This document shows, in pieces, positions 3,001 through 31,226 of a DNA stretch of 64,000 nt. The notes beneath the pieces are model-generated. The model made no database searches, was not told the origin of the DNA, and saw only the letters and a list, made by a program, of their open reading frames with translations. The DNA is taken from positions 9,852 to 73,851 of the forward strand of contig JANOEP010000044.1 of the NCBI GenBank assembly GCA_031441465.1. The letters run 5' to 3'. This stretch comes from a bacterium. GTDB taxonomy: Bacteria > Krumholzibacteriota > Krumholzibacteriia > LZORAL124-64-63. How positions within the stretch are numbered: the stretch's first letter is position 1; each line of letters opens with the position of its first letter. Position numbers and translations under genes: made by a program.

Positions 3001-3285
3001 GTCACCGCTTCGCGGCTGCTGGGCGCGACGCCGAACCCGTTCAATCCGTCGACCGAAGTCGCGTACGAGGTGGCCCGTGCCGGCCGCGGCGAGTTGACGG
3101 TGCACGACGTGCGCGGGCGGCAGGTCCGGACTCTCGTCGAGGGCGAGCTGACGACGGGACGCCACGTCGTGATCTGGAACGGCCTGGACGATGCCGGGCA
3201 GCGTGTGCCCAGCGGCATCTACATGGTGCGCTTGCGATCGGCGGGGGGAGGGGAGGATCTGCTCAAGCTGACCCTCGTCAAGTGA
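1..3285 (+). CDS. Large secreted multi-domain protein (CARDB/Ig-like repeats) with C-terminal FlgD-Ig/T9SS-like domain; 5' end lies outside the window
   Basis: Frame open from base 1. Two CARDB-like segments end 'AESDEDNN' and 'IDEDDWTNN'. C-terminus is 'PNPFNPSTEVAY...VHDVRGRQVRTL...WNGLDDAG...SGIYMVRL'. Confidence 0.8.
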   Translation, partial: EGCAQAISRISTQHLAERVQFNVVHKGVGAVTDDPGCDWDAWSIEGAFAGAVWDMADDDYGTETDHFRFDSLGEDVYDQLDLEVVDILNIMAQDCDVEGHAPYRAPGFFRCAAEYLDGLGSPQATRAMLWETAWNFDLQIDEQSPGMVPNLTASFPVGTPTQIANGTFHWQQPWDDMSGACAYSVQLSVGHMQTPDRIVDTTHLWWEPEEQLAPGTYYFSVLAMDRAGRWSGTASNYGPIVIIAPGPSDLEPMTPAGWTASLVLRNVTVAAPDPVLQTSLVNGSSVYFNWGERNVGIGTSGNFVDVMYLDGNPVYTSTIRLLNAGVTNAPRNNGPVNLGAIGRHTVWVREDGMDNAAESDEDNNIYAKQFVFAPQDLDLGETISRTGGLPDATAGQGMLPIGSTFYPNGDGFEIEVCLFPELVWAVPDDADDRIVLRLHPHDFNQTGFTTPLATSTSLADLPATVIQNPSETIMTSYCVGVLDDEGSGADYRIHREIGECFAMPDTLPGVLSTADCLDFYLTYNELGEEAWFTIKLANASTRDLQLRFFEPGFALGSLANADALVTAAAGDTVHHSVLLPPGAMALTVVTRDPRPAGSSPYTVFAYRAKSDPAATVPAGWFANVVPQIGTPYNAASDNIPAPTSLTGNSAATGIYWSLSNESAEAAVPIGLSHSLYLDGTSFLTGTFIEAISPSYTVKAVRSTLLNVRGGRHALTHSVNSNSVIDEDDWTNNRHGRQWVWSAQNLSANTTYQLPAPANPFGGLAQVTAGTVAPNCDGYRPSTPVMPTVPTIVAAYAWDDVLDVDLGIYASATVQEGYTSDYALSQWSGPGCDFVLRGVATHGTATFNLGVVRAGGQSTGDYTLATKTTTDAWASPVDGRLLGTVEAGSYLDAVRLDLPAGTYVFTLTSTDVELGFSLHDFSFGATGKTEPWQDGIAWQTAEEGSPYASFAVTIPATGAPTEFALVVWRTDGTSAALDGDWRVMVGDDVTGVDDGEPVPDAVTASRLLGATPNPFNPSTEVAYEVARAGRGELTVHDVRGRQVRTLVEGELTTGRHVVIWNGLDDAGQRVPSGIYMVRLRSAGGGEDLLKLTLVK

Positions 3286-3313
3286 CGGTGGCCTCGGCCG
3301 AGTGGAACCGACT

Positions 3314-3348
3314 GCGCCCCGCTCCTGTATGAGCGGGGCGCGTGTTTT
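3314..3348 (+). terminator. Intrinsic terminator
   Basis: 11-bp stem GCGCCCCGCTC/GAGCGGGGCGC followed by GTGTTTT, downstream of the stop at 3285. Confidence 0.65.
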
Positions 3349-3523
3349 AGGGAGACCCGGCGCGCGCCGGCGATTCGCCGACTCTGGGGATGCCGGCCGC
3401 AGATATCCTAGGCTATTACCAGGAATTTGCTGTAGATTACCCACCTGTTGAATGTTCGCCCGGGACGGCAGGGCGCTCCGAGCGTGTTGCCGGCCGGCCC
3501 GCTGTTCCGCCGAAGGAGAACCC

Positions 3524-4078
3524 ATGTTCCAGCGCCTGCCGATCGTCGCCGTCGCGGCCGTCGCCATCCTGCCCCTGCTCGCCGTGGCCGCCGGTGCCGG
3601 ATCCGCGACGGTCGCGCCCCTGCACGGCGGCGCCGTCACCGCCACCAAGGCCCACGCCTTCGAGACCCTGATCACGCCGCAGGGGGTGCGCGTCTTCCTC
3701 TACACCGACGAATCGGCGCCGGCCATGGTCGAGAAGGCGACCGGCACCGCCAAGCTGGCGCTGCCCGACGGCCGCACGCTCGACGTGCCCCTGAAGACGC
3801 GCCAGCCGGCCGGCGGCGAGCCCACCGCCTACTTCTGCCCCATGCACGCCGAAGTCGTGCGCGACGCGCCGGGCAAGTGTGAGCTGTGCGGCGGGATGGT
3901 CCTCTTCGTGCAGGACCACCTGTTCGGCGCCGCCGATCTCGGGGCCGTCGACCCCGCCGCGGTCACGGCGTTGATCCGCGTGTCCGGCCTGCGGGGCGCC
4001 GAGAAAGAGGCGACTTTCACGCCGGCCTTCTCGACGCCCGACGAGAAGGCCGGAGCCGTGCAGGCGGGCCAAGAATAA
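3524..4078 (+). CDS. Exported heavy-metal-binding domain protein (CPMH-type HMBD)
   Basis: AAGGAG RBS before ATG 3524, signal peptide, motif YFCPMH...PGKCELCGG. First gene of the cus-like operon. Confidence 0.8.
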   Translation: MFQRLPIVAVAAVAILPLLAVAAGAGSATVAPLHGGAVTATKAHAFETLITPQGVRVFLYTDESAPAMVEKATGTAKLALPDGRTLDVPLKTRQPAGGEPTAYFCPMHAEVVRDAPGKCELCGGMVLFVQDHLFGAADLGAVDPAAVTALIRVSGLRGAEKEATFTPAFSTPDEKAGAVQAGQE

Positions 4079-4125
4079 GCGGGGAGGCCGGCACGCCGGA
4101 TCTCCTGGCTTCCGAACCGTTCGCG

Positions 4126-5340
4126 GTGATCTCCGGCAACAGGGACGCCGCCGCCGCCGTCGTCGCGGCCGATTCCCTCGTCGCCCTGGCCCTGGCCCGC
4201 TCGCCCCGCCTCGCGGCGCTCGCCGAGTACATCGCCGTCGCGCGCGAGGAGGCGCCCGCCGAAGGCGCCCTGCCCGACCCGATGGTCGGCTTCAGCGCGC
4301 GCGGCGAAGACTACCCCGGCGCCGGCATCGGCGAGGATCCGATGGCCATGGCCGCGTTCGAGGTCAGCCAGACCCTGCCGTGGCCCGGCAAGCGCGGGCG
4401 CCGGCAAGCCGCGGCCGCAGCCAAGGTCGCCGTTGCCGAGGCGGAACTCGTCGCGGCGCGGCGGCGCCTCGCGGCCGAGGTGCGCGCCGCCTATGCCGAG
4501 CAGGCGGTGATCGATGCGCAGCGGGCGACGTTGCGCGAAGCGATCGCCCTGGTCGAACTGCTGGTCCCCGCCGTCACGGCGCGCTACGCGAACGGCCTGG
4601 CCGGCCAGAGCGACGTGGTCGGCCTGCAGCTCGAGCGGCTGCGCCTGGAGGTCGACCTGGAGGATCTCGACACGCGGTGCGCCGAGCATCTGGCCGAATT
4701 GTCCGCCGCGCTCGATCTGCCAGTCTCCGATCTGCCGCCGCTGGACGCGGGTCTGCCGGCCGTCGCGCCCGCCGACGTGGCCTCCGTCGCGGCCGGCGAC
4801 CTCGCCGAGGTCGCCGCAGCCGAGGCCCGCGTGAACGCCGCCGCGCAGCGGGCCGCCGCGGCCGAAGGCGAAGGCTCGCCCGACCTCGTCCTGGGCGCCG
4901 AGTACGGCTGGCGCGACGCGCTGCCGCCGATGGTCACCGCCCGCCTGGGCGTGGAGCTGCCGCTGTGGCAGGGCCGCAAGCAGGACGCCCTGGCCCGCGC
5001 CGCCGGTCGCGAGCACCTGATGGCCGAGGCCGAACGGCGCGACGCGCTCGCCATGGCCGGGGCGGAAGTCGCGGGACTGCAGGCGCGCGCCGGCGCCGCG
5101 CAGCGGCAGATCGAACGTCTCCGCAACGGCATCCTGCCCCAGGCGACCCTGGTCGTCGAGTCGGCCCGCTCCGGGTACGCCACGGGCGTCGCCGACGCCG
5201 CCGAGGTGATCATGGCCCTGCGTCAGCTCGTCGAATCCCGCGCGATGCTGGTCGAACGCGAGGCCGACCTGTACACCGCTTGGGCCGCGCTGCGCGCCCT
5301 CGCGGGCCGCGACCCCGTTCTTCAGGAGTACCGCCGATGA
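4126..5340 (+). CDS. TolC/CusC-family outer-membrane efflux protein; start uncertain
   Basis: 'GALPDPMV', 'SQTLPWPGKR' and 'VELPLW' are typical of heavy-metal TolC proteins. Stop overlaps the next ATG (ATGA). First in-frame start after 4078 is GTG 4126. Confidence 0.8.
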   Translation: MISGNRDAAAAVVAADSLVALALARSPRLAALAEYIAVAREEAPAEGALPDPMVGFSARGEDYPGAGIGEDPMAMAAFEVSQTLPWPGKRGRRQAAAAAKVAVAEAELVAARRRLAAEVRAAYAEQAVIDAQRATLREAIALVELLVPAVTARYANGLAGQSDVVGLQLERLRLEVDLEDLDTRCAEHLAELSAALDLPVSDLPPLDAGLPAVAPADVASVAAGDLAEVAAAEARVNAAAQRAAAAEGEGSPDLVLGAEYGWRDALPPMVTARLGVELPLWQGRKQDALARAAGREHLMAEAERRDALAMAGAEVAGLQARAGAAQRQIERLRNGILPQATLVVESARSGYATGVADAAEVIMALRQLVESRAMLVEREADLYTAWAALRALAGRDPVLQEYRR

Positions 5341-6653
5341 AGCACGCGCCGTTGCCGGCCTTCGCGCTCGCCTTCCTCGTCCTCTTCGTCGCACTCGCCG
5401 TCGGCGGCTGCGACGGCGGCCATGATCGCGGCGCGCAGGGCGGCGAGGCGGCCGGCGCGGGGCGGACCGCCGCCGCGGACGAGAAGTGGCTTTGCCCCAT
5501 GCACCCCACCTACATCGTCGACCGCAAGGGCGCCTGCCCCATCTGCGGCATGGACCTGGTGCCGGCGGTGGAGTTCTCGGCACAGCAGGGCGCTGCGGCG
5601 TCGGGTGTCCCGGGCATGGCGGCCATGGAATTGAGCGACGAGGCTGTCCGCCTCGCGGGCGTGCGGACGCATCCCGCGACGATGGAGCCGCTGAGCACCG
5701 GGATCCGGGCCGTCGGCCTGATCGTCGCCGACGAGACGCGCGTGCGCAGCGTGCAGACGCGGGTCGCCGGCTGGATCGAGTCGCTGGCCGTGAATTCGGT
5801 CGGGGCGCGCGTGTCCGCGGGCGAGCCCCTGCTGACCATCTACTCGCCGGAACTCGTGGCGGGCCAGGAGGAGCTGCTGCGCGCCGTCGCCGCCCGCGAC
5901 GCCGCCGGCGGCGAACCGCAGTCGCTGGCCAACGCCGAACTGCTCGTCGCCGCGGCGCGCCGCCGCCTGCAGCTCTTCGAGGTGCCCGACAGCTTCGTCG
6001 CGAGGCTCGAGGAGACCGGCGCGGTCCTGCGCACCGTGCCCCTGCGCTCGCCTGCGTCCGGCGTCGTCACGGAGCGCATGGCCTACGTGGGCATGCAGGT
6101 GGAGCCGGGCATGGCCCTCTTCCAGGTCACGGACCTCGCCGTGGTGTGGGTCGACGCCCGCTTCTACGAATACGAGGCCGGCCTGGTCGTCGAGGGCGCG
6201 CCGGTCGAGGTGCGCCTGCCGCACGACCCCGGGCTCGTCCTGCAGGGTGCGATCGACTACGTCTACCCGACGCTGGACGACGCCTCGCGCACCCTCTCCG
6301 CGCGCGTCGTCCTGGCCAACGATTTCGGGTTGCTGAGGCCGGGCATGTACGCGGACGTGACGCTCTTCGCCGACCGGGGCGAAGCCCTGGTCGTCCCCGA
6401 CGACGCCATCCTCGACACCGGCGAACGCCGCCTGGTGTTCGTGTCCCTCGGCGAGGGGCGCTTCACCCCGCGCGAGGTCGAAGTGGGGGTCCGCGCGCAC
6501 GGCAAGGCGCAGATCCTGAGCGGCCTCTCGGCCGGGGAGCAGGTCGTCGTGAAGGCCAACTTCCTGCTGGACAGCGAGTCGCGCCTCCGCGCCGCGCTCG
6601 CGGGCGCCGGCGCCGCCGTCCCGACGGGCGGCCACGCGGAGGAGCACCGGTGA
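5337..6653 (+). CDS. cusB: CusB-family RND periplasmic adaptor with N-terminal HMBD
   Basis: WLCPMHP...GACPICGMDLVP, GWIESL, IYSPELV, LRPGMY and ANFLLDSESRL motifs. ATGA/GTGA coupling on both sides. Confidence 0.88.
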   Translation: MKHAPLPAFALAFLVLFVALAVGGCDGGHDRGAQGGEAAGAGRTAAADEKWLCPMHPTYIVDRKGACPICGMDLVPAVEFSAQQGAAASGVPGMAAMELSDEAVRLAGVRTHPATMEPLSTGIRAVGLIVADETRVRSVQTRVAGWIESLAVNSVGARVSAGEPLLTIYSPELVAGQEELLRAVAARDAAGGEPQSLANAELLVAAARRRLQLFEVPDSFVARLEETGAVLRTVPLRSPASGVVTERMAYVGMQVEPGMALFQVTDLAVVWVDARFYEYEAGLVVEGAPVEVRLPHDPGLVLQGAIDYVYPTLDDASRTLSARVVLANDFGLLRPGMYADVTLFADRGEALVVPDDAILDTGERRLVFVSLGEGRFTPREVEVGVRAHGKAQILSGLSAGEQVVVKANFLLDSESRLRAALAGAGAAVPTGGHAEEHR

Positions 6654-9600
6654 TCCCGCGCATCATCGAGTTCAGCGCGCGCAACCGCCTCCTGGTGCTC
6701 GTGCTCACGGCGCTGGCCTGCGCGTACGCCGTCCACACGCTGCAGACGATCCGCCTCGACGCGCTGCCCGACCTGTCGGACACCCAGGTGATCATCGCCG
6801 CGAAGTGGGACCGCTCGCCGGACATCATGGAAGACCAGGTCACCTACCCCGTGGTCAGCGGCCTGCTCGGGGCGCCCCGGGTGAAGGCCATCCGCGGCTT
6901 CTCGGACTTCGGCTATTCCTTCGTCTACGTGATCTTCGAGGACGGCACCGACCTCTACTGGGCGCGCTCGCGGGTGCTCGAGTACCTGGACGAGATCCAG
7001 CCGCGGCTGCCCGCCGGGGTGAACGTCGCGCTGGGACCCGACGCCACGGGCGTGGGCTGGGTCTTCCAGTACGCGCTGGCGGACCCCGAGGGCCGCCACG
7101 GTCTCGACGAACTGCGTTCCTACCAGGACTGGACGTTGCGCTACGCGATCCAGGCCGTGCCCGGCGTGGCCGAAGTGGCCTCCATCGGCGGTTACCAGCG
7201 GCAATTCCAGATCACGGTCGATCCCGTCCGCCTCGCGGCCCTCGGGGTGCCGCTGCACGCGGTGATGGGAGCCGTCCAGGCCTCCAATAACGAGGTGGGC
7301 GGCCGCCTGCTCGAGTGGAGCGGCGCCGAGTACATGGTCCGCGGCCGCGGTTACGCCAAGACGCTCGCGGACTTCGAACAGATCGTCGTGAAGACCGCCG
7401 CCGGCGGCGTGCCGGTGCTGTTGAGCGACGTCGCCCGCGTGGAACTGGGACCCGACCTGCGCCGCGGCGTGGCCGACCTCGACGGCGGCGGCGACGCGGT
7501 GGGCGGCATCGTCGTGATGCGCCACGGCGAGAACGCCCTGCGCGTGATCGAGCGCGTCAAGGAGAGGCTGCACGAGCTGGAACCCGGCCTGCCGGCGGGC
7601 GTCGAGTTCGTCACCACCTACGACCGCAGCGACCTCATCCACCGCGCCATCGACACCCTCAAGCACGAGCTGCTGCTGCAGATGATCATCGTGTCGCTGG
7701 TGATCCTGGTCTTCCTGTGGCACGTGCCGTCGGCCATCGTGCCCATCATCACGATCCCCGTCTCGGTGCTGCTGGCCTTCATCCCGCTGCGCGCCCTGGG
7801 CGTCACGGTGAACATCATGTCGCTCGCCGGCATCGCCATTTCCATCGGCGTGCTCGTCGACGGGGCCATCGTCGAGGTGGAGAACGCCTACAACCGGATC
7901 CACCTCTGGCAGGTGGGCGGCCGCAAGGGGAGCTTCCACGACGTGCGCCTCGAGGCGCTCAAGGAGGTCGGTCCTTCGGTCTTCTTCTCGCTGCTGGTGA
8001 TCGCGGTGGCCTTCATCCCGGTCTTCACCCTGGTCGACCAGGAGGGCCGGTTGTTCCGGCCGCTCGCCTTCTCGAAGAACCTCGCGATGGCCCTCGCCGC
8101 CGTCCTCGCCATCACGCTGGACCCGGCGATGCGCATGATGTTCGCGCGCAGCGACCCGTTCACGTTCAAGCCCCGCGCCCTGGCGCGCTTCGCCAGCGCG
8201 GCCCTCGTCGGCACCTACCACGACGAATTGAAGCACCCGATCAGCCGCGCGATCTACCGCGTCTACGACCCCGCCTGCCGCTTCGTGCTGCGCCACCCGG
8301 CGGCGGTGATCCTCGCGGCGTTCCTGGCGGTCGCGGCCACCGTCCCGATGTACTTCCGCCTGGGCACCGAGTTCATGCCGCCCCTGAACGAGGGGTCCAT
8401 CCTCTACATGCCGACGACGCTGCCGGGCATCTCGGTGACGCAGGCCGTCGAGCTGATGACGACGCAGGACCGCGTCCTGAAGTCGTTCCCCGAGGTCCTG
8501 AGCGTGTTCGGCAAGGCCGGCCGCGCCGACACGGCCACCGACCCGGCGCCGCTGTCGATGATGGAGACCACGGTCATCCTCAAACCCGCGGACCAGTGGC
8601 GGCCCAAGGCGCGCTGGTACAGCGGCCGCCTGCCGGATTTCCTGCTGCCGCTGGTGCGGCCGATCTGGCCCGACCGCATCTCCTGGGCCGAACTGGTGGA
8701 CGAGATGGACCGCGCCCTGCGCATCCCGGGCGTGACCAACGCCTGGACCATGCCCATCAAGGCCCGCACCGACATGCTCACCACGGGCGTGCGCACCCCG
8801 GTGGGCATCAAGATCTTCGGGCCCGACCTCGCCGAGCTCGAGCGCCTCGGCACGCGGATCGAGTCGATCCTGCCCGCGGTCGCGGGCACCCGCAGCGTCT
8901 TCGCCGAGCGCGCCGCGGGCGGCTACTTCGTGGACATCGAGCCCCGCCGCGGCGAGCTGGCCCGCCTCGGCCTCACCGTCGCCGACCTCCAGGATGTGAT
9001 CATGTTCGCCGTCGGCGGCGAGAACGTCGGCACCGTGATCGACGGCCGGGCCCGGTACTCCATCAACGTCCGCTACCCGCGCGAGCTGCGCGACGATCTC
9101 GACAAGCTCGGGCGCGTCCTCGTCGACGCGCCCGGCGGCGCCGCCGTGCCGCTCGCGCAGGTCGCCGACCTGAAGATCGTCTCCGGCCCGGCGATGCTGC
9201 GCGACGAGAACGGGTTCCTCGCCAGCTACGTCTACGTCGACGTCGCGGGCCGCGACATCGGCGGCTACGTGGAAGAAGCCAAGCGCGTCGTGCGCGAGCA
9301 GGTCGCGTTGCCGGCCGGCTACGTCCTGCAATGGAGCGGCCAGTACGAGAACATGCTGCGGGTCGAGAAGCGCCTGCGGCTCGTCGTGCCGGCCACCCTG
9401 GTGCTCATCTTCCTGCTGCTGCTCGCGAACACGCGCTCGAGCTTCAAGGCGGGCGTGATCCTGCTGTCGGTGCCCTTCTCGGCAGTGGGCGCCATCTGGC
9501 TGCTCCACTTCCTGGACTACAACGTCTCGATCGCCGTGTGGGTGGGGCTGATCGCCCTGCTGGGCCTCGACGCCGAGACCGCCGTCTTCATGCTGCTGTT

Positions 9601-9931
9601 CCTCGACCTGTCGTACGACCAGGCCAAGCGCGAGGGCCGGCTGCGCGACCTCGCCGAGCTGGACGAGGCCATCCACCACGGCGCCGTCAAGCGCGCCCGG
9701 CCGAAACTGATGACCGTCGCCGCGACCTTCATCGGGCTGCTGCCCATCATGTGGTCGACCGGGGCGGGCGCGGACGTGATGAAGAGGATCGCGGCGCCGA
9801 TGATCGGCGGGCTCGTGACGTCCTTCCTGCTGGAACTGCTCGTGTACCCGGCGGTCTACAAGCTTTGGAAGATGCGGGAGCTGGGCCTGTCGTTCCCCGC
9901 CGGACGGCGGCTGCGGGCGGGGCGCTTGTAA
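6650..9931 (+). CDS. cusA: CusA/CzcA-family heavy-metal RND permease
   Basis: 'LDALPDLSDTQVI', 'GPDATGVGWVFQY', 'EFMPPLNEG', 'RPKLMT', 'DVMKRIAAPMIGG'. Confidence 0.95.
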   Translation: MIPRIIEFSARNRLLVLVLTALACAYAVHTLQTIRLDALPDLSDTQVIIAAKWDRSPDIMEDQVTYPVVSGLLGAPRVKAIRGFSDFGYSFVYVIFEDGTDLYWARSRVLEYLDEIQPRLPAGVNVALGPDATGVGWVFQYALADPEGRHGLDELRSYQDWTLRYAIQAVPGVAEVASIGGYQRQFQITVDPVRLAALGVPLHAVMGAVQASNNEVGGRLLEWSGAEYMVRGRGYAKTLADFEQIVVKTAAGGVPVLLSDVARVELGPDLRRGVADLDGGGDAVGGIVVMRHGENALRVIERVKERLHELEPGLPAGVEFVTTYDRSDLIHRAIDTLKHELLLQMIIVSLVILVFLWHVPSAIVPIITIPVSVLLAFIPLRALGVTVNIMSLAGIAISIGVLVDGAIVEVENAYNRIHLWQVGGRKGSFHDVRLEALKEVGPSVFFSLLVIAVAFIPVFTLVDQEGRLFRPLAFSKNLAMALAAVLAITLDPAMRMMFARSDPFTFKPRALARFASAALVGTYHDELKHPISRAIYRVYDPACRFVLRHPAAVILAAFLAVAATVPMYFRLGTEFMPPLNEGSILYMPTTLPGISVTQAVELMTTQDRVLKSFPEVLSVFGKAGRADTATDPAPLSMMETTVILKPADQWRPKARWYSGRLPDFLLPLVRPIWPDRISWAELVDEMDRALRIPGVTNAWTMPIKARTDMLTTGVRTPVGIKIFGPDLAELERLGTRIESILPAVAGTRSVFAERAAGGYFVDIEPRRGELARLGLTVADLQDVIMFAVGGENVGTVIDGRARYSINVRYPRELRDDLDKLGRVLVDAPGGAAVPLAQVADLKIVSGPAMLRDENGFLASYVYVDVAGRDIGGYVEEAKRVVREQVALPAGYVLQWSGQYENMLRVEKRLRLVVPATLVLIFLLLLANTRSSFKAGVILLSVPFSAVGAIWLLHFLDYNVSIAVWVGLIALLGLDAETAVFMLLFLDLSYDQAKREGRLRDLAELDEAIHHGAVKRARPKLMTVAATFIGLLPIMWSTGAGADVMKRIAAPMIGGLVTSFLLELLVYPAVYKLWKMRELGLSFPAGRRLRAGRL

Positions 9932-10031: not shown

Positions 10032-10610
10032 GTGCATCGGCGGCGCACCTGGGTCCGGACTCTCTCGCTCCTGTTTAGCTTCGCCACGCTCATCCCCGCG
10101 AGCGCCGGCGCCCAATCGATCGTCATCACCCTGCAGGCACACTCCGATGTCGTCACCTCCGACCTTCACCGCTTCGGCGTGCACGACGACGCCCTGATGG
10201 GCCTGGACGGCTATGATCTGCCGGAACCGCCGCCGCCTCCCGGCAGCTACCTGAGCCTGTCTTTCGTGATGCCCGGCGCGGCGACGGACCTGCCGAACCG
10301 CTGGCGCCACGAGCTGCGCCCGTCGGAGATCTTCATGGATCAGACCGAGACCTGGGAGCTGGTCCTGGAGACCGACCAGGTCGGCCGGCCGCTGTTGCTG
10401 GACTTCGCCGCGGAGATCGGGGCGCAGTACCCGCTGGCCGTGACGATCGTCGCGCCGCCGGAGCGCGCGTACCGCGTCGAGCTGCCGGCCCAGCTGCCCT
10501 TCGTGGCGCTGGCGCCCGTCACGACGCTCCGGCTGGAATTGACGTCCGACGATCCCGTCGCTACGCAAGACGTCGATTGGGGCGCGCTCAAGCGGCGGTA
10601 CGAGCGATGA
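10032..10610 (+). CDS. Secreted protein of unknown function with C-terminal WGxxKxxY tail
   Basis: GGGAG RBS before GTG 10032, signal peptide ending ASAGA, 'GLDGYDLPEPPPPP' domain, ends VDWGALKRRYER. Confidence 0.75.
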   Translation: MHRRRTWVRTLSLLFSFATLIPASAGAQSIVITLQAHSDVVTSDLHRFGVHDDALMGLDGYDLPEPPPPPGSYLSLSFVMPGAATDLPNRWRHELRPSEIFMDQTETWELVLETDQVGRPLLLDFAAEIGAQYPLAVTIVAPPERAYRVELPAQLPFVALAPVTTLRLELTSDDPVATQDVDWGALKRRYER

Positions 10611-10656
10611 GTGCAGCTTGGATCGGGAGCAATTCCTTCATGACGGGAGCTCGACC

Positions 10657-11250
10657 ATGCGATGCCGGATCCCCTCCACTCTGGTCCTGGTCGTCGCCCT
10701 GCTGACCGCGGCGAGCGGCGATCTGGCGCAGACCGACGCCTTCTGCATCAGCGAAAACGAGACGGGAACCGGAGGTTGGGGTTGCACCAACATCCCCGCC
10801 TTCGTGCCGACGAACATTTACCTGTGCCTGCTCCACCCGAGCGGGGAACAGGTCTTGGCCTGGGAGGCCAGGATCATTCACGACAACGCCACCGCCATGG
10901 TCGGCTCCTGGGTGGTCAACGGCGTGGATTCCCACCCGGACGCCGAGAATTTCGTCGTCACCTGCGTGGTCTCACCGCTGTATCCCAACCCGCAGGATAT
11001 CGTCGTGCTGGGCTCGATGCAGGTTATCGTCCTGAATCCGAGCGAGCGCATCGAGTTCTTCATCGGCCCGATTCCCGGATCCACGAACTTCCCCGCAGGC
11101 ACGCCCGGTTACGTCCACACGATGGGCATCAACACGCCCGCCACCGTGTGTAGCGGCGAATACGCTTTGCCGGTGTTCCACATCAACATGTGCCTCATGG
11201 ACGCGGTGGAGGAAGCCGACTGGGGTGCGATCAAGGCGCTGTACGAGTGA
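10657..11250 (+). CDS. Secreted protein (paralog of the N-terminal domain of 11388..13715) with WGxxKxxY tail
   Basis: GGGAG RBS, signal peptide, 'FVPTNIYLCLL...AWEARI...GPIPGS..FP.GTPGYVHT', ends ADWGAIKALYE. Confidence 0.8.
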   Translation: MRCRIPSTLVLVVALLTAASGDLAQTDAFCISENETGTGGWGCTNIPAFVPTNIYLCLLHPSGEQVLAWEARIIHDNATAMVGSWVVNGVDSHPDAENFVVTCVVSPLYPNPQDIVVLGSMQVIVLNPSERIEFFIGPIPGSTNFPAGTPGYVHTMGINTPATVCSGEYALPVFHINMCLMDAVEEADWGAIKALYE

Positions 11251-11387
11251 TGAGCGCTTCGTGCCGGCAAGGCCGTGATTCCCGCCGGCGTGCCGGCGTG
11301 CGTCCACCCGCGCCCGCTCAATCCGAGCGGCAACCAGATCATGGTCCTCGATGCCAGATTCACCGATCCCCATCACGGAGGCCATCC

Positions 11388-13715
11388 ATGAGCATGTCCA
11401 CCCGGTTCTACCTGACGATCTTCGCCGCCCTGCTCGCCCTGTCCGGCGCCGCGCTGGCGCAGCAGGACGCCTTCTGCATCTGCGTCGACCCGACGGATCC
11501 CGCCGAATGCGGCGGCAACGCCGACATCCCGATGTTCGTGCCGACGAACATCTACCTGTGCCTGCTCAATCCGAGCGGCAGCCCGGTCCGGGCCTGGGAG
11601 GCCCGGATCACGAACACCAACCAGTCGGGCATGATCGGAACCTGGGTGATGTCCGGGCTGGACGTCGACAACGACCCCATGGACTTCGTCATCGGCAACG
11701 GCGCCTCGCCGCTGGTCCCGAATGCGCAGGATGTCGTCGTGATGGGCTCGATGCAGGTCATCATCCTGAACGCCAGCACGCCCGTCGAATTCTATATCGG
11801 GCCGATCCCGGGTTCGGGCACGTTCCCGGGCGGCACCCCGGGCTACGTGCACACGCTAGGGTTCAACACGCCTGCGACCGTGTGCGGCGACGACTTCACA
11901 CAACCCGTCTTCAGCATCAACGGCGACAACCCGCCGCCCTTCGAGGACTCCTTCACCGTGACCATCTCGTCGACGCTCGGCGCCTACCACGACTTGAACA
12001 ACCTCGCCGGCATGGAAGCGAGCGCGACGGACGGCCTGGACCCAAACCTCGATATCCCCGAGCCGCCGGCCCCGCCGGCGGGATTCGCGTACCTGACCTT
12101 CCCGCATCCCGAGTGGGCCTCGCCTCTGGGTGACAATTTCCGCACGGATTACAGGGCGACCTACGTGCCGGCGACCACGACCAAGACCTGGTCGCTGCAT
12201 TTCACGACCGACCAGAGCGGCGTCGCGATGCTCGACTTCCAGCCGAGCTTCGACCAGACCGCGAACTGGGAGCTGACGTTGATCGACCTCGATTCCGGCG
12301 AGGTCGTGGATCTCTGGGGCGCAGGACTCGACTACTCGTTCAACGCCATGCCGGGTCAAGTCCGCCACCTGGAGCTGCTGGTGGGCCCGACCCAGATCCC
12401 GCCCCTCAGCCCAACGTCCAGCCTCCTGCCGACCGGTTGGTCTCTGGTGGGCATGCCCCTGCTGCCGGACGCGCCGGGCACCGTGGGCTCGGTGCTGCTG
12501 GACGACATCGTCAGCCCCACGTTCGTCTACAGCCACACGGTGAGCTCCGGCTACCAGCAGCAGTTGCCGAACGACGTCATGCGGCAGGGCAAGGGCTACT
12601 GGGTGGGCGCGAACAACCCCTTCACCTGGACGATGGAGGGGCAGCGCGACCTCAACGGCGCCTCGTTGGTCCTGAACAGCGGCTGGAACCTGCTCGGCGC
12701 GCCGTTGTGGACCGCCATGAGTATCGACGACATCAAGGTCGACTACCAGGGCACCCGTTACGACTACGCGACGGCGGTCCAGATGGGCCTCGTCGGCAGC
12801 TACGTCTATTTCTACCAGACCTCGACGGGCACCTACGTGACCCGGTCCACCCTCCATCCCTGGCACGGTTACTGGGTACCCGCCTACATGAGCGGCGTCA
12901 GCCTGTGGTTCCACTACACCAACATCGGCCCCGACAAATCCACCCCGGCCGCCCCGATCTTCGAACCGAACGACCTGAACTGGCGCCTGAGCCTCGGCCT
13001 CGAGGGCAACCCCGAGTCCGTGGTCGTCGGTCGCCTCGAGAAGGCCGCCGACGGCTTCGACGCCGCCTGGGACCAGCCCCGCCCGCCGCGCGCGCCGGTC
13101 GCCGCGTCCCGGCCGGAGCTGTGGCTCGACGGTTCGGCCCTGCACCTCAGCACCGGCGACCAGCTCACGTCCGACTACCGCGCCGCGACGGACGCGGACG
13201 TGGCCTGGGACCTCGTCGTCACCGCGCCCGCGCCTGGGCCGGTCACGCTGCGCTGGGACGCCGCGGAGTGGGGCGGCCGCGAAGATCTGCAGCTGTACCT
13301 GCCCCACCAGAACCGCGTCGCGGTGATGTCGATGCGCGAGCGGTCGAGCTTGACACTCGATGTGGGCGCCGCGCCGATGATCGTGCGCCTGCGCACGCCG
13401 GACCTGTCGACCGGCGCGCCGGAGGTTGTCGCGGGCAGTTATCTGCTGCGCGCGGTGCCGAACCCGTTCAACCCGCGCACCGAGATCGTGATGACGCTGC
13501 CGCGCGCCGGCAAGGCCGAGGTGCGGGTCCACGACGTTCTCGGTCGCGTGGTGAAGCGCTTCGCGGTCGACGCGGCCGTGGCCGGGGAGAACCGCGTCAC
13601 CTGGCTGGGCACCGACGATCGCGGCCGTGACGTGGCCAGCGGCGCGTACTTCGCGGCGCTCTACGTGGATGGGGCCGCGTCGGGCGCGGTGGTCCGGTTG
13701 AGCCTGGTGCGCTGA
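11388..13715 (+). CDS. Secreted multidomain protein with C-terminal FlgD-Ig/T9SS-like domain
   Basis: GGAGG RBS and signal peptide. N-domain closely similar to 10657..11250. Two 'ATDGLD..DIPEPP' / 'AADGFD..DQPRPP' modules, GWSLVG/GWNLLG repeats, PNPFNP CTD. Confidence 0.85.
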   Translation: MSMSTRFYLTIFAALLALSGAALAQQDAFCICVDPTDPAECGGNADIPMFVPTNIYLCLLNPSGSPVRAWEARITNTNQSGMIGTWVMSGLDVDNDPMDFVIGNGASPLVPNAQDVVVMGSMQVIILNASTPVEFYIGPIPGSGTFPGGTPGYVHTLGFNTPATVCGDDFTQPVFSINGDNPPPFEDSFTVTISSTLGAYHDLNNLAGMEASATDGLDPNLDIPEPPAPPAGFAYLTFPHPEWASPLGDNFRTDYRATYVPATTTKTWSLHFTTDQSGVAMLDFQPSFDQTANWELTLIDLDSGEVVDLWGAGLDYSFNAMPGQVRHLELLVGPTQIPPLSPTSSLLPTGWSLVGMPLLPDAPGTVGSVLLDDIVSPTFVYSHTVSSGYQQQLPNDVMRQGKGYWVGANNPFTWTMEGQRDLNGASLVLNSGWNLLGAPLWTAMSIDDIKVDYQGTRYDYATAVQMGLVGSYVYFYQTSTGTYVTRSTLHPWHGYWVPAYMSGVSLWFHYTNIGPDKSTPAAPIFEPNDLNWRLSLGLEGNPESVVVGRLEKAADGFDAAWDQPRPPRAPVAASRPELWLDGSALHLSTGDQLTSDYRAATDADVAWDLVVTAPAPGPVTLRWDAAEWGGREDLQLYLPHQNRVAVMSMRERSSLTLDVGAAPMIVRLRTPDLSTGAPEVVAGSYLLRAVPNPFNPRTEIVMTLPRAGKAEVRVHDVLGRVVKRFAVDAAVAGENRVTWLGTDDRGRDVASGAYFAALYVDGAASGAVVRLSLVR

Positions 13716-13733
13716 GGCGCCGGGTGGTCGTTG

Positions 13734-13773
13734 GGCGGCGGGGCAGCTGCGGCTTGTCCCGCCGCCGTCTTTT
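13734..13773 (+). terminator. Intrinsic terminator
   Basis: GGCGGCGGG...CCCGCCGCC stem followed by GTCTTTT. Confidence 0.55.
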
Positions 13774-13816
13774 CAGTAAGGTGATCCCGGACCGCCACCG
13801 CCCCGCCGCCGGAGGG

Positions 13817-14419
13817 ATGCCGATGCGTTTCCCGCGCCCCGCGCCTGCCCTGTTCTTCGCCCTGATGCTCGGCGCCGCCGCCGCCGCGTCGGCCCAGTCC
13901 GACGTGTTCTGCGTTTGCACCGACGCCACGACCGGAACCTGCGGCGGGAACCTCGAGGTGAGCGTGCCGGGGTCGTGCACCGTCTATCTGGTGCTCGCGC
14001 AGCCGTCGGGGTCGCCGGTGATGGCCTGGGAGGCCCGGGTGACCGTCGAGGGGTCGGCCACCTACGTGGGCGGCTGGACGCTGGCGGCCGGCTTGAACGT
14101 GGGCAGCGGCGACAACTACACCGTCGGACTGCAACTGGGCGGCCTGAACGGCCTGATGCCCAACGGCGTCGGCTTGGTGCCGCTGATGTCCATGACCGTG
14201 ATGCTGCTGGGGGAGGGCCCGCTGCTCTTCAAGGTGGGGCCCGTGCCCGGCTCGGCCAGTTTCCCGGACGGGACGCCCGGCTACCTGGTGGGCGCGGACA
14301 CCCTGAAGCCGGCGTCGGTCTGCAGCGGCTCTTTCGACCGGGCCGTGTTCACCCTGAACAACGGCGACGCCGACGAGCAAGGCACCTGGGGCGAGGTCAA
14401 AACCCTGTATTCGCACTGA
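13817..14419 (+). CDS. Secreted protein (same domain family as 10657..11250) with WGxxKxxY tail
   Basis: GGAGGG RBS (start 13817 or 13823), signal peptide, 'PSGSPVMAWEARV', 'GPVPGSASFPDGTPGY', ends GTWGEVKTLYSH. Confidence 0.8.
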   Translation: MPMRFPRPAPALFFALMLGAAAAASAQSDVFCVCTDATTGTCGGNLEVSVPGSCTVYLVLAQPSGSPVMAWEARVTVEGSATYVGGWTLAAGLNVGSGDNYTVGLQLGGLNGLMPNGVGLVPLMSMTVMLLGEGPLLFKVGPVPGSASFPDGTPGYLVGADTLKPASVCSGSFDRAVFTLNNGDADEQGTWGEVKTLYSH

Positions 14420-14543: not shown

Positions 14544-15185
14544 ATGCAAGAAACCAACGTCGCCGTTGCCGTCCCCGCCTTCACCGGCGCGGCCCCCGAT
14601 TCCCTGCTCGACGTCTTCCAGGACCAGATCCGTCCCGGCGGGAGGATCCTCGACTTCGGGTCCGGCGACGACCGCCGTGACCTGTACCTGGCTTCTGAGG
14701 GTTACCGCGTCACCGTACTCGCCGGGTCCGCCGAGGCCGAGTCGCGCCTGAACGAGGCCGCGGCCGCCGACGGCCTGGACCTCGTCGCGCTTCGGGAATC
14801 GTTCCTGGAGCACGATCCCGGGACGCAGCCGTACGACGCGCTGCTCTGCTACGACCTGCTGCCGCGCCTGTCGCGCACGGACAACGCCAGCCTGCTGCAC
14901 CGCATCTTCAGCTGGACGGCGCACGGGTCGCTGCTGTTCCTGACGGCACGGCACGTGGACGACACGTCCTACGACGAGGTGAGCGCGACGTGGGAGAAGG
15001 CGGGCCTGCACAGCTTCCGCGGTCCGGACGGCGAGTACCGCACCTACCTGGCGCGCGGCGTCGTGCGCAACCTGTTCCGTGGCTGGAACACGCTGCACCA
15101 TCGGGAATCCATGTCGCTGGTCGACGGGAGTGCGGCCGATGGACCCAGGGCGGGGAGGATCGAACTCGTGGCGAGGCGCCGCTAG
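14544..15185 (+). CDS. Class I SAM-dependent methyltransferase (TehB-like)
   Basis: Motif I 'RILDFGSGDDR', post-II 'YDALLC'. Confidence 0.7.
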   Translation: MQETNVAVAVPAFTGAAPDSLLDVFQDQIRPGGRILDFGSGDDRRDLYLASEGYRVTVLAGSAEAESRLNEAAAADGLDLVALRESFLEHDPGTQPYDALLCYDLLPRLSRTDNASLLHRIFSWTAHGSLLFLTARHVDDTSYDEVSATWEKAGLHSFRGPDGEYRTYLARGVVRNLFRGWNTLHHRESMSLVDGSAADGPRAGRIELVARRR

Positions 15186-15538
15186 ATCAGCGGCGCCCCG
15201 CCACGTCAACCCCCACCTGCACTGCTGGAGCGTGAGACTGGGAAGGCCGGAACTCCCCCGAATGGCCCTCGCCCGTAGGTCATTCTCGAAAAAGGAGTTC
15301 CGGCCAAGGATGTGAAGGAGGTTCGGGTCGCGACTCGCTAGCGCTTCGCACAGTGTTTCGGATACTGCCCGCAATCGAATGGTATGCCCCCCACACCCAC
15401 TCCGACATCATCTATAAGCACGAACCCGGCGGGACGTTGCATGGCTTCGGCGGTTTTCCGCAATATTTTCACATTCCGGTATCCCGATAAGTGTATGCTA
15501 TGAAAAGCCCTCGCCCGGCCGACGGGAGAATGAAGCGC

Positions 15539-15724
15539 ATGATCAAGATCGTCGAACCAGACCACCGCCCCGAGATCCTCACCCCGCGTGCCGACGGGAC
15601 GTGCGGTTGCTCGTGTGCCTGTAATTGTGCGACTGGAGATCAGGCCGGGAACCAGTCGATCAAATCACCCAAGAGCGATATCATCTCATTTCCGGTCATC
15701 CACGGGAAGCGTGACGGCGCCTGA
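15539..15724 (+). CDS. Putative Cys-rich RiPP precursor peptide (CGCSCACNC core), 61 aa
   Basis: GGGAG RBS 10 nt before ATG 15539. Sequence MIKIVEPDHRPEILTPRADGTCGCSCACNCATGDQAGNQSIKSPKSDIISFPVIHGKRDGA. Overlaps the radical SAM start. Confidence 0.72.
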   Translation: MIKIVEPDHRPEILTPRADGTCGCSCACNCATGDQAGNQSIKSPKSDIISFPVIHGKRDGA

Positions 15725-17162
15725 GTCCGGCCGCCCGCTCTGCCGGGTCTTCCAGCACGGGGGCCGGAGCTATGTCTACGACGCCGGGGCTGATCAGGTC
15801 GTCGAGGTGTCGGCGTCCGTCGCCTCGTGGCTGGATGCAGCGATGTCCTATCCGGACTGGATCGCCGCCGATGCCGCCGTCGAGGCAGAGATCGTGCAGG
15901 CCCGCGTCGTGCACGGCCTGTTCCGCACCGGGCGCCCGCGCCTGGTCGCGAAGCGATCCGGTCGGAATCGCGCCGCCGACGATGCCGGCCGCATCTCACA
16001 AATGACCCTCACCCTGGACGAGCGCTGCAACCTGCGCTGCGCCTACTGCCCGCACACGCTCGCCGCCCCCTGGACGCGACCTCACGGCGAGCGGCGGATG
16101 TCGGAAGATACGGTGCGGGCCGCTGTGGATCTGTTCCTGGCGTGTGCGGACGGCGGTTCGCCGTCGATATCGCTTTACGGCGGCGAGCCCCTGCTGGCGC
16201 CGGGACTCGTCCGCGTGGTCGCGGACCTGGTCCACGCGGCACGGCGGCCCGGAATCCGGATCATCCTGGACACCAACGGCACCCTGCTCGATGACGCGAT
16301 GGTGGAGATCGTCGCCGTACGGGGTCTGTACCTGCAGGTGAGCTTGGATGGTCCGGCGCCGATCCACGACCGCTGGCGCACCACGGTCGACGGCCGTCCC
16401 ACGCACGCCGCGGTGATGGCGGGCCTGGAACGCCTGCTCGCTCGGGATCCCGCAGCGGCAGGCCGGTTGCAGTTCCAGGCGACGCTGGCGCCCGGCAGCG
16501 ATATGCTGGAGGCCGACGCCTTCTTCGTGGAGCTGGGCCGCGAGTTGGGCCTCGCCGACATGTCGGTGGGTGCGTCCTATGCGGACATCCCAGGGATGGT
16601 CGAGGCCGACCCGACCGCGACCTCGCCGGAAGCGGGCGGGTGGGAGCGGGCACGCGCCGTGTACGTCGAGGCCTGCTCGTCTGGTCGCCACGCCGACTTG
16701 GGGCCGCTGGTGCAAGCTTGGTTCGACGGCCCCCTGATCCGTTTCTACCACCGCGAAGCAGAACCGTTGGCCTCGACCTTCCGGCCGGGCGGCGTCTGCA
16801 CGCCCGGTCTGCGCCGCCTCCACGTTTGCAGCGACGGCACGCTGCAGCCTTGCGAACGCGTGGGCACGGCGTTCGGCCTCGGCGACGTGCGGCGCGGGTT
16901 CGATCTCGACGCCGTGGACCGGCTCGAGCAGGCGTGGTTCGATGCCCTCGGCGGCCGGTGCGCGGACTGCTGGGCGCTTCGCCACTGCAGCCTCTGCTTC
17001 ACGGCGATGATCGACAGGGAGTCGGGCTGCGTGGGCGCCGTGCCGGAATCGGCTTGCCAAGACGTCAGGAAGGAGTTCGAAGGCACGCTGCGCTTGTGGG
17101 TGGAGCTGCTGGCGCGCAACCCGCGGGCCCTGGATCACCTGAGGGGCAGCAGCGTCAGTTGA
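15711..17162 (+). CDS. Radical SAM/SPASM peptide maturase (CcpM-like)
   Basis: CNLRCAYC, YGGEPLL, VSLDGP. SPASM 'GGVCTPGLRRLHV..DG.LQPCERV...CADCWALRHCSLC...C'. N-terminal RRE-like segment 'YVYDAGADQVVEVS'. Confidence 0.88.
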   Translation: MTAPESGRPLCRVFQHGGRSYVYDAGADQVVEVSASVASWLDAAMSYPDWIAADAAVEAEIVQARVVHGLFRTGRPRLVAKRSGRNRAADDAGRISQMTLTLDERCNLRCAYCPHTLAAPWTRPHGERRMSEDTVRAAVDLFLACADGGSPSISLYGGEPLLAPGLVRVVADLVHAARRPGIRIILDTNGTLLDDAMVEIVAVRGLYLQVSLDGPAPIHDRWRTTVDGRPTHAAVMAGLERLLARDPAAAGRLQFQATLAPGSDMLEADAFFVELGRELGLADMSVGASYADIPGMVEADPTATSPEAGGWERARAVYVEACSSGRHADLGPLVQAWFDGPLIRFYHREAEPLASTFRPGGVCTPGLRRLHVCSDGTLQPCERVGTAFGLGDVRRGFDLDAVDRLEQAWFDALGGRCADCWALRHCSLCFTAMIDRESGCVGAVPESACQDVRKEFEGTLRLWVELLARNPRALDHLRGSSVS

Positions 17163-22532: not shown

Positions 22533-22917
22533 GGGGGCGCCGCCGCCGTCCAGATTCCGACCCCCCGATGCTTCCGTATTGCGCACCTCCCGCACCGCAG
22601 GAAGGCATTCTGCGCCCTCCCGCGACACGACGGAACACGTCCTGTTCACGGTTCCTCCCGGATGGAGCGCCTTTTCGGGAGCGGCGTCCGCCTTGGGGGC
22701 TGTTGGCGCATCTATAATAATATCAATGTGATACAACGATCATCGCGCAGCCGGGTGACCCGGCTGTCCGGTCGGTGCAGACCGGGCGCAGCTTCCGGCA
22801 AGGAAATCCTCAAGCGGGTATGAGGCTTGCCGATGGACTCTCGTGAATTCACCCCGGTCCGGCCGTGCGGACCCGACAAGAGCGCCCCCCCGCGAGGGCA
22901 AGAGAAAGGGATCTGGA

Positions 22918-23871
22918 ATGAAGACTCGTTACAGCATGCTGGCCGTCGTCCTGATGCTCGGCCTGGCCACGTCCGCGATGGCGACCGGGACGATCGGCCT
23001 GTTCTTCGACACCGAGGGCAACAGCGCCCAGCTCGTCGGCGAGCCCACGATGGTCTACGACGGCTACGTCCTGATCAACAACTCCGACATGCTGCTCGGC
23101 GGGGCGGCCTTCAAGCTCGAGTCCGAGGGCGGCTTCATGATCGTCAGCGAGACCTGGGCTCCGGGCTTGCTGTTCGGCACCCTGCTGACCGGCGCCGAGA
23201 TCGGTCTCTACACGCCCATCGCGCAGTTCGGCAACGACCCCCAGTCGATCTGCCACATCCAGGTGTTCTCGCCGACGATGATCGTCAACTCGCACCAGAC
23301 CATCGTCGCCGACCCGGACTACGCCACGCCGGTGCTGGCGAACACGTCCGCCATCCTGTTCCCGGCCGACGGCCTGACCTCCAGCATCACGCTGCGCCCG
23401 ACCCCCCAGATCGGCGTGTTCTGGGACGAGGCCGGCACCCAGGGCGTGTTGATCGAGAACGGCGGCATGACCGAGATCCACAACGCCTGGATCATGGTCC
23501 GCAATGCCGAGATGATGGTCGGCGGCGCCGCCTTCAAGCTGGTCCTGGATCCGCGCATCATGATCCTGAGCGCGACCCCGGCTTCGGGCCTGATCTTCGG
23601 CAGCCTGTCGGCCGGCGTCGAGATGGGTCTGTACAGCTACCTGCCCGTGTTCGGCACCGACCCGGGCCTGCTGTACACCCTGCAGATGACGACCTTCAAC
23701 AACCTGATGGTCAACGCCGAGCTGTCGATCGTCAATCATCCCAGCTACGACGCGCCCAAGGTGGCGGACAACAGCGCCGTCCAGTGGACCGCCGAAGGCC
23801 TGACCTCGTACCTGACCATCCCCGTCGGCACCGAGGAGATGAGCTGGGGCCAGGTCAAGAGCCTGTACTAG
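22918..23871 (+). CDS. Secreted two-repeat protein with WGxxKxxY tail
   Basis: Signal peptide ending SAMA. Internal duplication 'IGLFFD..G...GGAAFKL' / 'IGVFWD..G...GGAAFKL'. Ends MSWGQVKSLY. Confidence 0.85.
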   Translation: MKTRYSMLAVVLMLGLATSAMATGTIGLFFDTEGNSAQLVGEPTMVYDGYVLINNSDMLLGGAAFKLESEGGFMIVSETWAPGLLFGTLLTGAEIGLYTPIAQFGNDPQSICHIQVFSPTMIVNSHQTIVADPDYATPVLANTSAILFPADGLTSSITLRPTPQIGVFWDEAGTQGVLIENGGMTEIHNAWIMVRNAEMMVGGAAFKLVLDPRIMILSATPASGLIFGSLSAGVEMGLYSYLPVFGTDPGLLYTLQMTTFNNLMVNAELSIVNHPSYDAPKVADNSAVQWTAEGLTSYLTIPVGTEEMSWGQVKSLY

Positions 23872-31109: not shown

Positions 31110-31226
31110 TCATGCCGGCGCCCCCCCTCGTACCCGTATCGAGCTGGTCATGTGGTAATGAGGCTGACGATCAGCCAGAACGGTGCTAGGCTCACCGCGG
31201 TTCAGGTTGTCGAGGAGGATCGGACG

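Follow-up and report, generated by a model that had tools for sequence, protein, structure and literature searches.

The window analysed here, a stretch of 64,000 nucleotides (C44:9852-73851) from the 3.49-Mb genome (about 70% G+C, 96.8% complete) of an uncultured sediment bacterium of the phylum Krumholzibacteriota, contains a cluster of four genes coding for putatively exported proteins. Three of the products, P0001, P0002 and P0004, are small and end in a similar segment of 18 residues, referred to below as the tail. The third gene in order codes for a large protein, P0003, which ends in a FlgD-Ig domain resembling the C-terminal domain (CTD) of type IX secretion system (T9SS) cargo. The main result of our studies is that the tail is clearly an appended, strictly C-terminal and portable module, and on passengers shared by both kinds of protein it has been exchanged repeatedly with the CTD. 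Since no curated model among those searched (Pfam, NCBIfam) describes such a segment, and no paper on it was found in a literature search with most subscription journals outside its reach, the tail may represent a new C-terminal sorting or docking tag.

The tail and its carriers

The small cluster proteins end in DWGALKRRYER (P0001), DWGAIKALYE (P0002) and TWGEVKTLYSH (P0004). When the regular expression WG.[IVLAM][KR]..[YFW] was run on all 26,930 stop-to-stop frames of at least 60 amino acids in the genome, 54 matches were obtained. In 49 of them no more than three residues separate the motif from the stop, and in 37 exactly one residue follows the aromatic position. These 49 WG tails align as V-[AP]-N-E-x-x-[ST]-W-G-x-[VI]-K-x-[LM]-Y-R, with W, G and K invariant; the likeness is limited to approximately the last 18 residues, and the sequences upstream of it are unrelated among the carriers. 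Allowing W[GS] gave 62 tailed open reading frames (ORFs); counted from the C-terminus, their W falls at 8-11 residues, and at exactly 9 in 47 of them. For single-module proteins in general, the motif over its 18 residues can be written as [VI]-[AP]-N-E-x-x-[ST]-[W/F]-[G/S]-x-[VI]-K-x-L-[Y/F]-[R/K]-COOH. Tail-bearing ORFs constitute about 2% of the genome's ORFs judged to be genes. The sequence-only reading, which had ascribed a WG tail to all three stand-alone genes of the cluster, was right about these three, but across the genome the second residue is either G or S.

All 49 WG-tailed ORFs have a possible start with a signal-peptide-like segment after it, and two of them look lipobox-like; here and throughout, signal peptides were called by heuristic reading of N-termini, without a dedicated predictor. 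The passengers recognised above Pfam cut-offs are LTD, CBM_20, Temptin_C, Kre9_KNH, TSP_3 and Cohesin. No Pfam family was matched at E <= 0.01 by 40 of the 49 ORFs, and any paralogue match at E <= 1e-5 was obtained for 20. The 49 tail segments themselves, compared with Pfam and NCBIfam at E <= 10, hit three families in each, every one of them in a single member. The three tailed cluster proteins had no match in either database at E <= 1, and past the passenger domain they extend by about 18 residues only, so that an Ig-like sorting domain is lacking.

Of the 62 tails, none contains a transmembrane-like stretch, defined as a 19-residue Kyte-Doolittle window of at least 1.6 within the last 40 amino acids (the maximum was 1.53), and the last three positions hold one basic residue in 50 tails, none in 11 and two in one. 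The hydrophobic moment (helix 0.40, strand 0.41) did not exceed that of shuffled sequences (0.32 +/- 0.15, reached by 30% of shuffles), so an argument from helical amphipathicity was dropped. Two tail segments submitted to the ESM Atlas gave scores of 0.89 and 0.78; the matches behind the former are short hypothetical proteins and one Eiseniibacteriota record, which we treat as leads only.

Modelling places the tail outside the fold of its passenger. In the AF2 model of P0002, built with 18 homologues (mean pLDDT 82.8), a beta-sandwich of residues 28-176 (pLDDT about 94) is followed by a disordered linker at residues 182-188 (pLDDT below 50) and by a short low-confidence helix at residues 189-196 (pLDDT about 54). 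Because the fold ends at residue 176 and a disordered linker precedes the tail, the WG segment is predicted to be appended to the domain, in line with the sequence-only reading, rather than to be one of its integral strands or helices, the case that would have told against that reading. Residues W189, K193 and Y196 of P0002 are invariant across 18 homologues; among ten orthologues of P0001 (189-192 aa, mostly about 80% identical) W183 and K187 are invariant. The junction can be seen at single-residue precision in the L044 family. Its tailed member has a passenger ending in ...FLIEVAG, past which only the approximately 18 residues of the tail extend, and in its paralogues (60% and 54% identical) a linker plus CTD starts from the same junction residue.

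The tail is not confined to this genome. In a sample of 201 genomes of the phylum, a DNA pattern encoding W-G-x-hydrophobic-K-x-x-[Y/F]-basic-stop was detected in 195, with up to 76 matches per genome, versus 0-1 for the reversed pattern used as a control; FlgD_ig CTDs were found in 201 of 201. Family f2 and genus g18 were considered as tail-less lineages, a notion rejected when a looser pattern found W-S, W-T and ...F-R variants. In lineages poor in WG this pattern gave 3-32 matches against a control of 0, in five genomes of five. Tail sequences drift by lineage (genomes G097, G159, G001, G004 and G006), W-G being changed to W-S, W-T or W-A, and Y to F. In many relatives of the passenger module of P0002, called module A below, the W is replaced by F, L or M (representatives P0105-P0214; for instance, ...TFGSVKSLFR).

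Passenger modules and the exchange of tail for CTD

The passengers of the three small cluster proteins recur in P0003. By BLASTP, P0002 aligns with residues 25-178 of P0003 (59% identity over 154 aa, E 5e-59) and P0004 with the same stretch (41% over 158 aa, E 2e-33), defining module A, while P0001 aligns with residues 192-284 (36% over 98 aa, E 3e-11), defining module B. A second, diverged B copy, B', emerged from alignment with P0038, a relative of A-B-CTD layout whose B plus CTD corresponds to P0003 residues 546-775; this alignment gives P0003 the order A-B-C-B'-CTD, with the borders listed in Table 1. Among the relatives of P0003 there are full-length forms (identities of 78%, 60% and 40%) as well as a shorter form, 437-444 aa in length and of A-B-CTD layout, from which region C is missing. 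These similarities are highly significant, hence not spurious. Together with the match of the CTD to PF13860, they bear out the sequence-only description of P0003 as A and B modules followed by a CTD, and of the gene at 10032 as a stand-alone B. The claim that the stand-alone A genes share module A is likewise borne out, but the motif FVPTNIYLCLL, quoted there as common to them, is not present verbatim in P0004, which reads SCTVYLVLAQ.

Modules A and B and region C match no Pfam or NCBIfam family, and a sequence search of the PDB returned nothing for A (best E 0.097) or B (best E 0.71). Prediction of structure and fold search, which the sequence-only reading had put forward as a check, were more informative for module A. 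Its best PDB matches in Foldseek are cohesins (E 8e-5, TM 0.43-0.58). When it was compared with 48,161 representative PDB chains by VIA-align, the top 20 were all cohesins (Z 8.2-11.8), superimposed over 121-138 residues with a root-mean-square deviation of 2.6-4.9 A (6.9 in one row); pilin-type domains came next, at Z <= 7.3. In its predicted structure, module A is thus a beta-sandwich with the nine-stranded jelly-roll fold of cohesins, the likeness being structural only. Pfam Cohesin (PF00963) gave no match at E <= 1 for P0002, P0004 or the A part of P0003, and hhalign of module A against L043, the single Pfam-cohesin protein of the genome, which bears a tail itself, returned a probability of 5%. 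Dockerin_1 (PF00404) was not detected in this genome at E <= 0.01. Five module-A genes were found in the genome, including two on contig C37 with W-S tails. The AF2 model of the whole P0003, based on 13 sequences, is of low confidence (mean pLDDT 52.5) and was informative in Foldseek for the CTD only.

That CTD matches PF13860 (FlgD_ig; residues 705-755, E 1.1e-7, 32.2 bits against a cut-off of 27) and scores 19.2 bits with TIGR04183, under the cut-off of 23; Foldseek related it to the FlgD Ig domain at 27-30% identity and to the C-terminal domains of PorU and PorZ. The N-terminus of P0003, MSMSTRFYLTIFAALLALSGAALAQ, reads directly as a Sec signal peptide. In the genome there are 110 FlgD_ig matches above cut-off. 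The machinery search covered SprA, PorU and PorV and revealed a SprA homologue above cut-off (470.8 bits summed), a PorU-like gene matching its model over the full length (positions 4-1093) at 403 bits, just below the cut-off of 420, and, adjoining the latter, a PorV-like gene (95 bits against a cut-off of 250). Judged by these homologues and by the 110 FlgD_ig matches, this genome codes for a T9SS and for many cargo proteins. In the systems studied so far, the CTD carries the cargo across the outer membrane; the sortase PorU then removes the CTD, and the protein becomes attached to the cell surface. By analogy, gene 3 would code for a type-A-like cargo, for which cleavage by PorU and linkage to surface glycolipid would be expected. 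The literature search, limited as stated above, found no paper linking Krumholzibacteriota to type IX secretion or FlgD Ig-like domains to T9SS.

Elsewhere in the genome (G000:C48:24000-37000, L077) lies an operon that begins with genes for a GspE/PilB-like ATPase, a GspF-like protein and four proteins of prepilin type. After some unknown genes it continues with a secretin of 467 aa, the only one in the genome, a PilT-like ATPase and a prepilin peptidase. The operon is of the type II secretion or type IV pilus kind, and because of it another way through the outer membrane is possible.

Three passenger families of this genome occur with either tail or CTD. Module A allowed the relation between the two to be followed on a larger scale. 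A profile search among 1.84 billion proteins gave 412 representative clusters at E <= 0.001, and the tags were read in the best 150 of them. Among those of up to 260 aa, 86 carry the tail and 38 something else (mostly tails with F, L or M in place of W, the rest being fragments), while among the longer ones 20 carry the CTD, one the tail and five something else; in the 87 family tails thus collected, W, K, L and Y/F dominate. A FastTree phylogeny was calculated from the module-A region alone for 126 rows (105 with tail, 21 with CTD), leaving out seven rows with neither tag, rows shorter than 170 aa and rows with partial profile cover. Ten tag changes are needed on this tree, at least six of them forced by well-supported branches, versus 19.7 +/- 1.1 with shuffled labels, and none of 500 shuffles was as low as ten. 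P0002, which bears the tail, is sister to P0003 plus P0032, both with the CTD, at 99% local support. The tree is unrooted, rests on a short alignment and was made without bootstrap, so that the number of switches is rough; on it, tail and CTD have replaced each other repeatedly, six times at the least.

The proposal of the sequence-only reading that the two C-termini are alternative tags has therefore gained support in one of its parts. That the tail is appended and can take the place of the CTD is clear from its occurrence on at least six unrelated Pfam types, from the L044 junction and from the module-A tree.

The cluster and its surroundings

All four ORFs of the cluster are on one strand, with spacers of 46, 137 and 101 bases, and each has a signal-peptide-like N-terminus as read from its translation. 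Their features are collected in Table 1. Terminator-like hairpins, one of which follows gene 3, were identified by consensus match only, with three sites found versus 1.8 +/- 1.2 in shuffled sequences.

Table 1. Features of the four-gene cluster (positions are those of the window)
Feature	Position	Strand	Description
Gene 1 (P0001, 'B-tail')	10032..10610	+	Signal peptide, module B, tail; 192 aa, GTG start
Gene 1, tail	10554..10607	+	PVATQDVDWGALKRRYER
Gene 2 (P0002, 'A-tail')	10657..11250	+	Signal peptide, module A (predicted cohesin fold), tail; 197 aa
Gene 2, tail	11194..11247	+	LMDAVEEADWGAIKALYE; preceded by disordered linker
Gene 3 (P0003)	11388..13715	+	Putative multi-module T9SS-type cargo, A-B-C-B'-CTD; 775 aa
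Gene 3, module A	11460..11927	+	Residues ~25-180
Gene 3, module B	11955..12392	+	Residues ~190-335
Gene 3, middle region C	12405..12977	+	Residues ~340-530
Gene 3, second, diverged B copy (B')	13023..13391	+	Residues ~546-668
Gene 3, CTD	13455..13712	+	FlgD-Ig / T9SS type-A-like; residues 690-775
Hairpin, terminator-like, 3' of gene 3	13734..13766	+	13-bp stem, 10 G-C pairs, T-rich tail
Gene 4 (P0004)	13817..14419	+	Second 'A-tail' paralogue; 200 aa
Gene 4, tail	14363..14416	+	GDADEQGTWGEVKTLYSH

Directly upstream of the cluster (window 3886-9931) there is a heavy-metal efflux operon, CusC (OEP) / CusB (HMBD plus HlyD) / CusA (RND). A contig of a related metagenome-assembled genome (L050) carries CusB-CusA (1-5036) followed by A-tail, A-tail, B-tail and A-B..., the same set of genes as in our cluster in a different order, likewise downstream of metal-efflux genes. 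Modules A and B contain conserved Cys and His residues. A link of the cluster to metal handling is possible.

Five further tailed genes, for which no Pfam match was obtained, lie in the window (22759-23871, 31110-34599 and 45033-46136). For one of them (L032), contig C37 holds a paralogue with 68% identity, three others (L030, L028 and L033) are tandem paralogues of 40-65% identity, and one (L034) is located immediately upstream of a gene coding for a CTD protein of 1008 aa (42006-45032). Contigs C11, C39 and C64 carry, near tailed genes, three ORFs of about 371 aa that are almost identical and end in ...RHELSYAM; they probably belong to an insertion sequence.

Regarding the remaining parts of the window, a further T9SS-type cargo gene (CARDB plus FlgD_ig) is found at 55-3285, and a TehB-like methyltransferase (PF03848, weak) together with a radical SAM protein of 524 aa at 14544-17162, downstream of the cluster. 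Between 60001 and 64000 the G+C content falls from about 0.69 to 0.48-0.51; this block has no Rfam match, contains an ORF for a 642-aa GHKL-type ATPase (HATPase_c_3; 61775-63706, minus strand), and may represent a defence island or DNA of foreign origin.

Possible roles of the tail and comparison with known systems

The interpretation to which we lean, tentatively and at somewhat less than even chances, is that a single shared factor of the cell envelope reads the tail as a short label for address or retention, and that the tailed A and B proteins act with their CTD-anchored paralogue. The mechanism would involve a Sec-exported protein family assembled from shuffled modules A and B and finished by one of two interchangeable tags. 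Large, multi-module members carry the FlgD-Ig domain of about 85 residues, the T9SS signal, and single-module members bear the 18-residue tail in its place. Through recognition of the tail by a dedicated envelope factor, small exported proteins would be directed to a defined site, at the outer membrane or beyond it, with no need for a full CTD, and in the cluster the tailed A and B proteins would probably cooperate with the CTD-anchored P0003. The notion of alternative export or anchoring tags fits the portability of the tail and its genome-wide spread. If a receptor for the tail exists, it should co-vary with the lineage drift of the tail.

Several observations weigh against such a label, or at least against its working independently of the CTD proteins. 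The tag tracks protein size almost perfectly, the tail being found on small and the CTD on large proteins. This dichotomy is what a subunit-and-scaffold relation would predict, and two equivalent export tags would not. Tailed genes are also enriched beside CTD genes: 10 of the 62 lie within 500 bp of one, 17 within 1 kb and 27 within 3 kb, versus 1.8 +/- 1.3, 3.5 +/- 1.8 and 9.5 +/- 2.9, respectively, at random positions, and none of 1000 sets of random non-overlapping positions reached the observed proximity, to which general clustering of genes for secreted proteins could add. The pairing of tailed B with CTD-borne B is kept down to 26-30% identity. P0001-like proteins occur in 40 of the 201 sampled genomes, 37 of which belong to the family of the window genome itself. 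In 16 loci picked from about 34 genomes with a full-length stand-alone B match, a stand-alone B ORF was invariably present and in 15 abutted one or two large CTD ORFs containing B or A-B, the sixteenth locus being cut by a contig end. The tail was recognised by the regular expression in 13 of these 16 proteins, and the other three end in the variants FSEVKRLYR, LAGIKALYR and WGGVQILYR. Proximity and the conserved tailed-B/CTD-B pair thus favour partnership over an independent route. Moreover, the only gene families recurring within 6 kb of tailed genes are CTD proteins and an insertion-sequence-like repeat, with no cognate handler among them, and all described small sorting signals contain a hydrophobic transmembrane segment, which is absent from each of the 62 tails.

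A separate observation concerns the same pairs. The tailed B and CTD ORFs are in the same reading frame, with a single stop between them, in 7 of 14 pairs (L061, L062, L064, L069, L071, L074 and L075), where chance would give about 4.7; the likely reason is simply that spacers in this high-GC DNA are very short.

Partnership is taken furthest by an explanation that we regard as possible, though doubtful, in which the tail is a miniature dockerin. It would dock on cohesin-fold modules such as A, or on another module of CTD proteins, so that scaffolds anchored by the T9SS would display the tailed proteins in a non-covalent manner; in the terms used for cellulosomes, the A-tail proteins would be adaptor subunits and gene 3 would code for the anchoring scaffoldin. 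The cohesin fold of module A, seen in all of its top 20 structural matches, and the Pfam Cohesin match of the tailed L043 are consistent with such docking, as are the division of the two tags between small and large proteins, the enrichment of tailed genes beside CTD genes and the adjacency of tailed B to B-containing CTD genes in 15 of 16 loci. There is also a precedent, for a study of Cloacimonadota (PMC8542988) infers a cohesin scaffoldin with a T9SS CTD in Ca. Stygibacter. However, the AF2 monomer model leaves the tail of P0002 undocked on its own module A, the likeness to cohesins is structural only (no Pfam Cohesin match, hhalign 5%), and five module-A genes and one Pfam cohesin stand against 62 tails. 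Apart from the B pairs, nine other adjacent tail/CTD pairs of the genome share no module at E < 0.05 (0 of 9), and tailed proteins would still need to pass the outer membrane. In a more ambitious version, to which we give a rather small chance, the tail is the 'dockerin' of a display system native to a two-membrane bacterium, its 10-18 residues fitting into cohesin-fold modules, with dozens of small tailed binders, carbohydrate-binding modules and cohesin adaptors assembled, possibly in chains, on scaffolds held at the outer membrane by the T9SS. It would be still bolder to suppose that a PorU-type sortase uses the tail's invariant lysine as amine acceptor, which would join subunit and scaffold covalently.

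It is unlikely, in our opinion, that the tail is instead a minimal T9SS signal, in which PorV or SprA would recognise a reduced equivalent of the CTD's final strand, even though the two C-termini have features in common. Of the 110 CTDs of this genome, 91 have L at position -3 and 103 have R/K at position -1, and both tail and CTD end in L-hydrophobic-[R/K]-COOH with a K upstream, the K-x-x-x-[R/K] spacing of the tail resembling the KxxxK motif. In Lasica 2017 (PMC5445135), the last 22 CTD residues in P. gingivalis, which include KxxxK, are reported to be sufficient for secretion, and loss of the two terminal residues to block it. Repeated swaps between tail and CTD and the presence of FlgD_ig CTDs in all 201 genomes also agree with a minimal signal. 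On the other hand, the likeness is confined to three positions, and the K of the tail is out of register with that of the CTD by one. The tail is predicted to be helical or disordered, with no strand, and PMC5445135 also stresses that it is the fold of the CTD, not its sequence, that is recognised. Furthermore, the ratio of tails to CTDs varies widely: the genome of the window has 62 tails and 132 first-look FlgD_ig candidates, and the f2 genomes G001, G004 and G006 have 3-11 tail-pattern matches against 199-223 such candidates.

Anchoring at a membrane interface is less probable still. C-terminal helices anchor some periplasmic enzymes, and the tail, with a helix predicted by AF2 at residues 189-196 of P0002 and with the aromatic W and Y/F plus K and R typical of interfacial segments, might keep proteins of the periplasm or surface attached to lipopolysaccharide or to a leaflet of a membrane. 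Its hydrophobic moment is not above that of shuffles, however, and W, K and the N-E pair are nearly invariant in proteins unrelated to one another and throughout the phylum, which suggests specific recognition by a protein more than binding to lipids in general. That the WG segment is no tag, being integral to each fold or a chance or compositional motif, is hardly credible: the low confidence of the predicted helix could be cited in its favour, but 49 of 54 matches lie at the very C-terminus, the passengers are unrelated, a disordered linker precedes the tail, and the reversed DNA pattern gave 0-1 matches against up to 76 per genome.

C-terminal tags decide whether exported bacterial proteins are released, anchored or assembled on the surface. 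To our knowledge, the discovery of every tag of this sort has so far led on to machinery dedicated to it, be it sortases, exosortases, rhombosortase or the T9SS attachment complex. The tail described here would point either to an unknown envelope recognition factor or to docking on cohesin-fold modules by a very small peptide. Both readings would be useful for prediction of surface proteomes of environmental FCB-type bacteria and as a source of a compact surface-display tag, and the tail offers a simple annotation rule for hundreds of 'hypothetical' proteins in metagenomes.

Among known systems, the type-A CTD of T9SS is similar to the tail in being C-terminal, portable, present in many copies and borne by unrelated Sec-exported passengers; the tail replaces it on homologous passengers and has a similar L-hydrophobic-[R/K] end. 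The tail differs from it in length (18 versus about 85 residues), in lacking the Ig fold and matching neither CTD model, and in its confinement to small single-module proteins, with one long exception in the best 150 module-A relatives. The small tripartite C-terminal sorting signals, such as LPXTG, PEP-CTERM, GlyGly-CTERM and MYXO-CTERM, are characterised by seven attributes in the preprint of Haft (10.1101/2023.06.07.544157). Five of these are shared by the tail, namely its C-terminal position, many copies, at least three near-invariant residues, signal peptides and unrelated carriers, but it lacks the transmembrane segment and has one basic residue instead of a cluster of 2-5. The tail is not a member of this tripartite class as defined there, and because both the transmembrane segment and the basic cluster are missing, an intramembrane sorting protease acting on it is unlikely. 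From cohesin-dockerin assemblies our cluster differs in that module A is outside Pfam Cohesin, that the genome has no Dockerin_1, and that the putative docking element would comprise about 10-18 residues in comparison with the 60-70 residues of a calcium-binding dockerin. What it has in common with them is the arrangement of genes, in which proteins of the 'cohesin plus short C-terminal tag' type are encoded beside one of the 'cohesin plus surface anchor' type.

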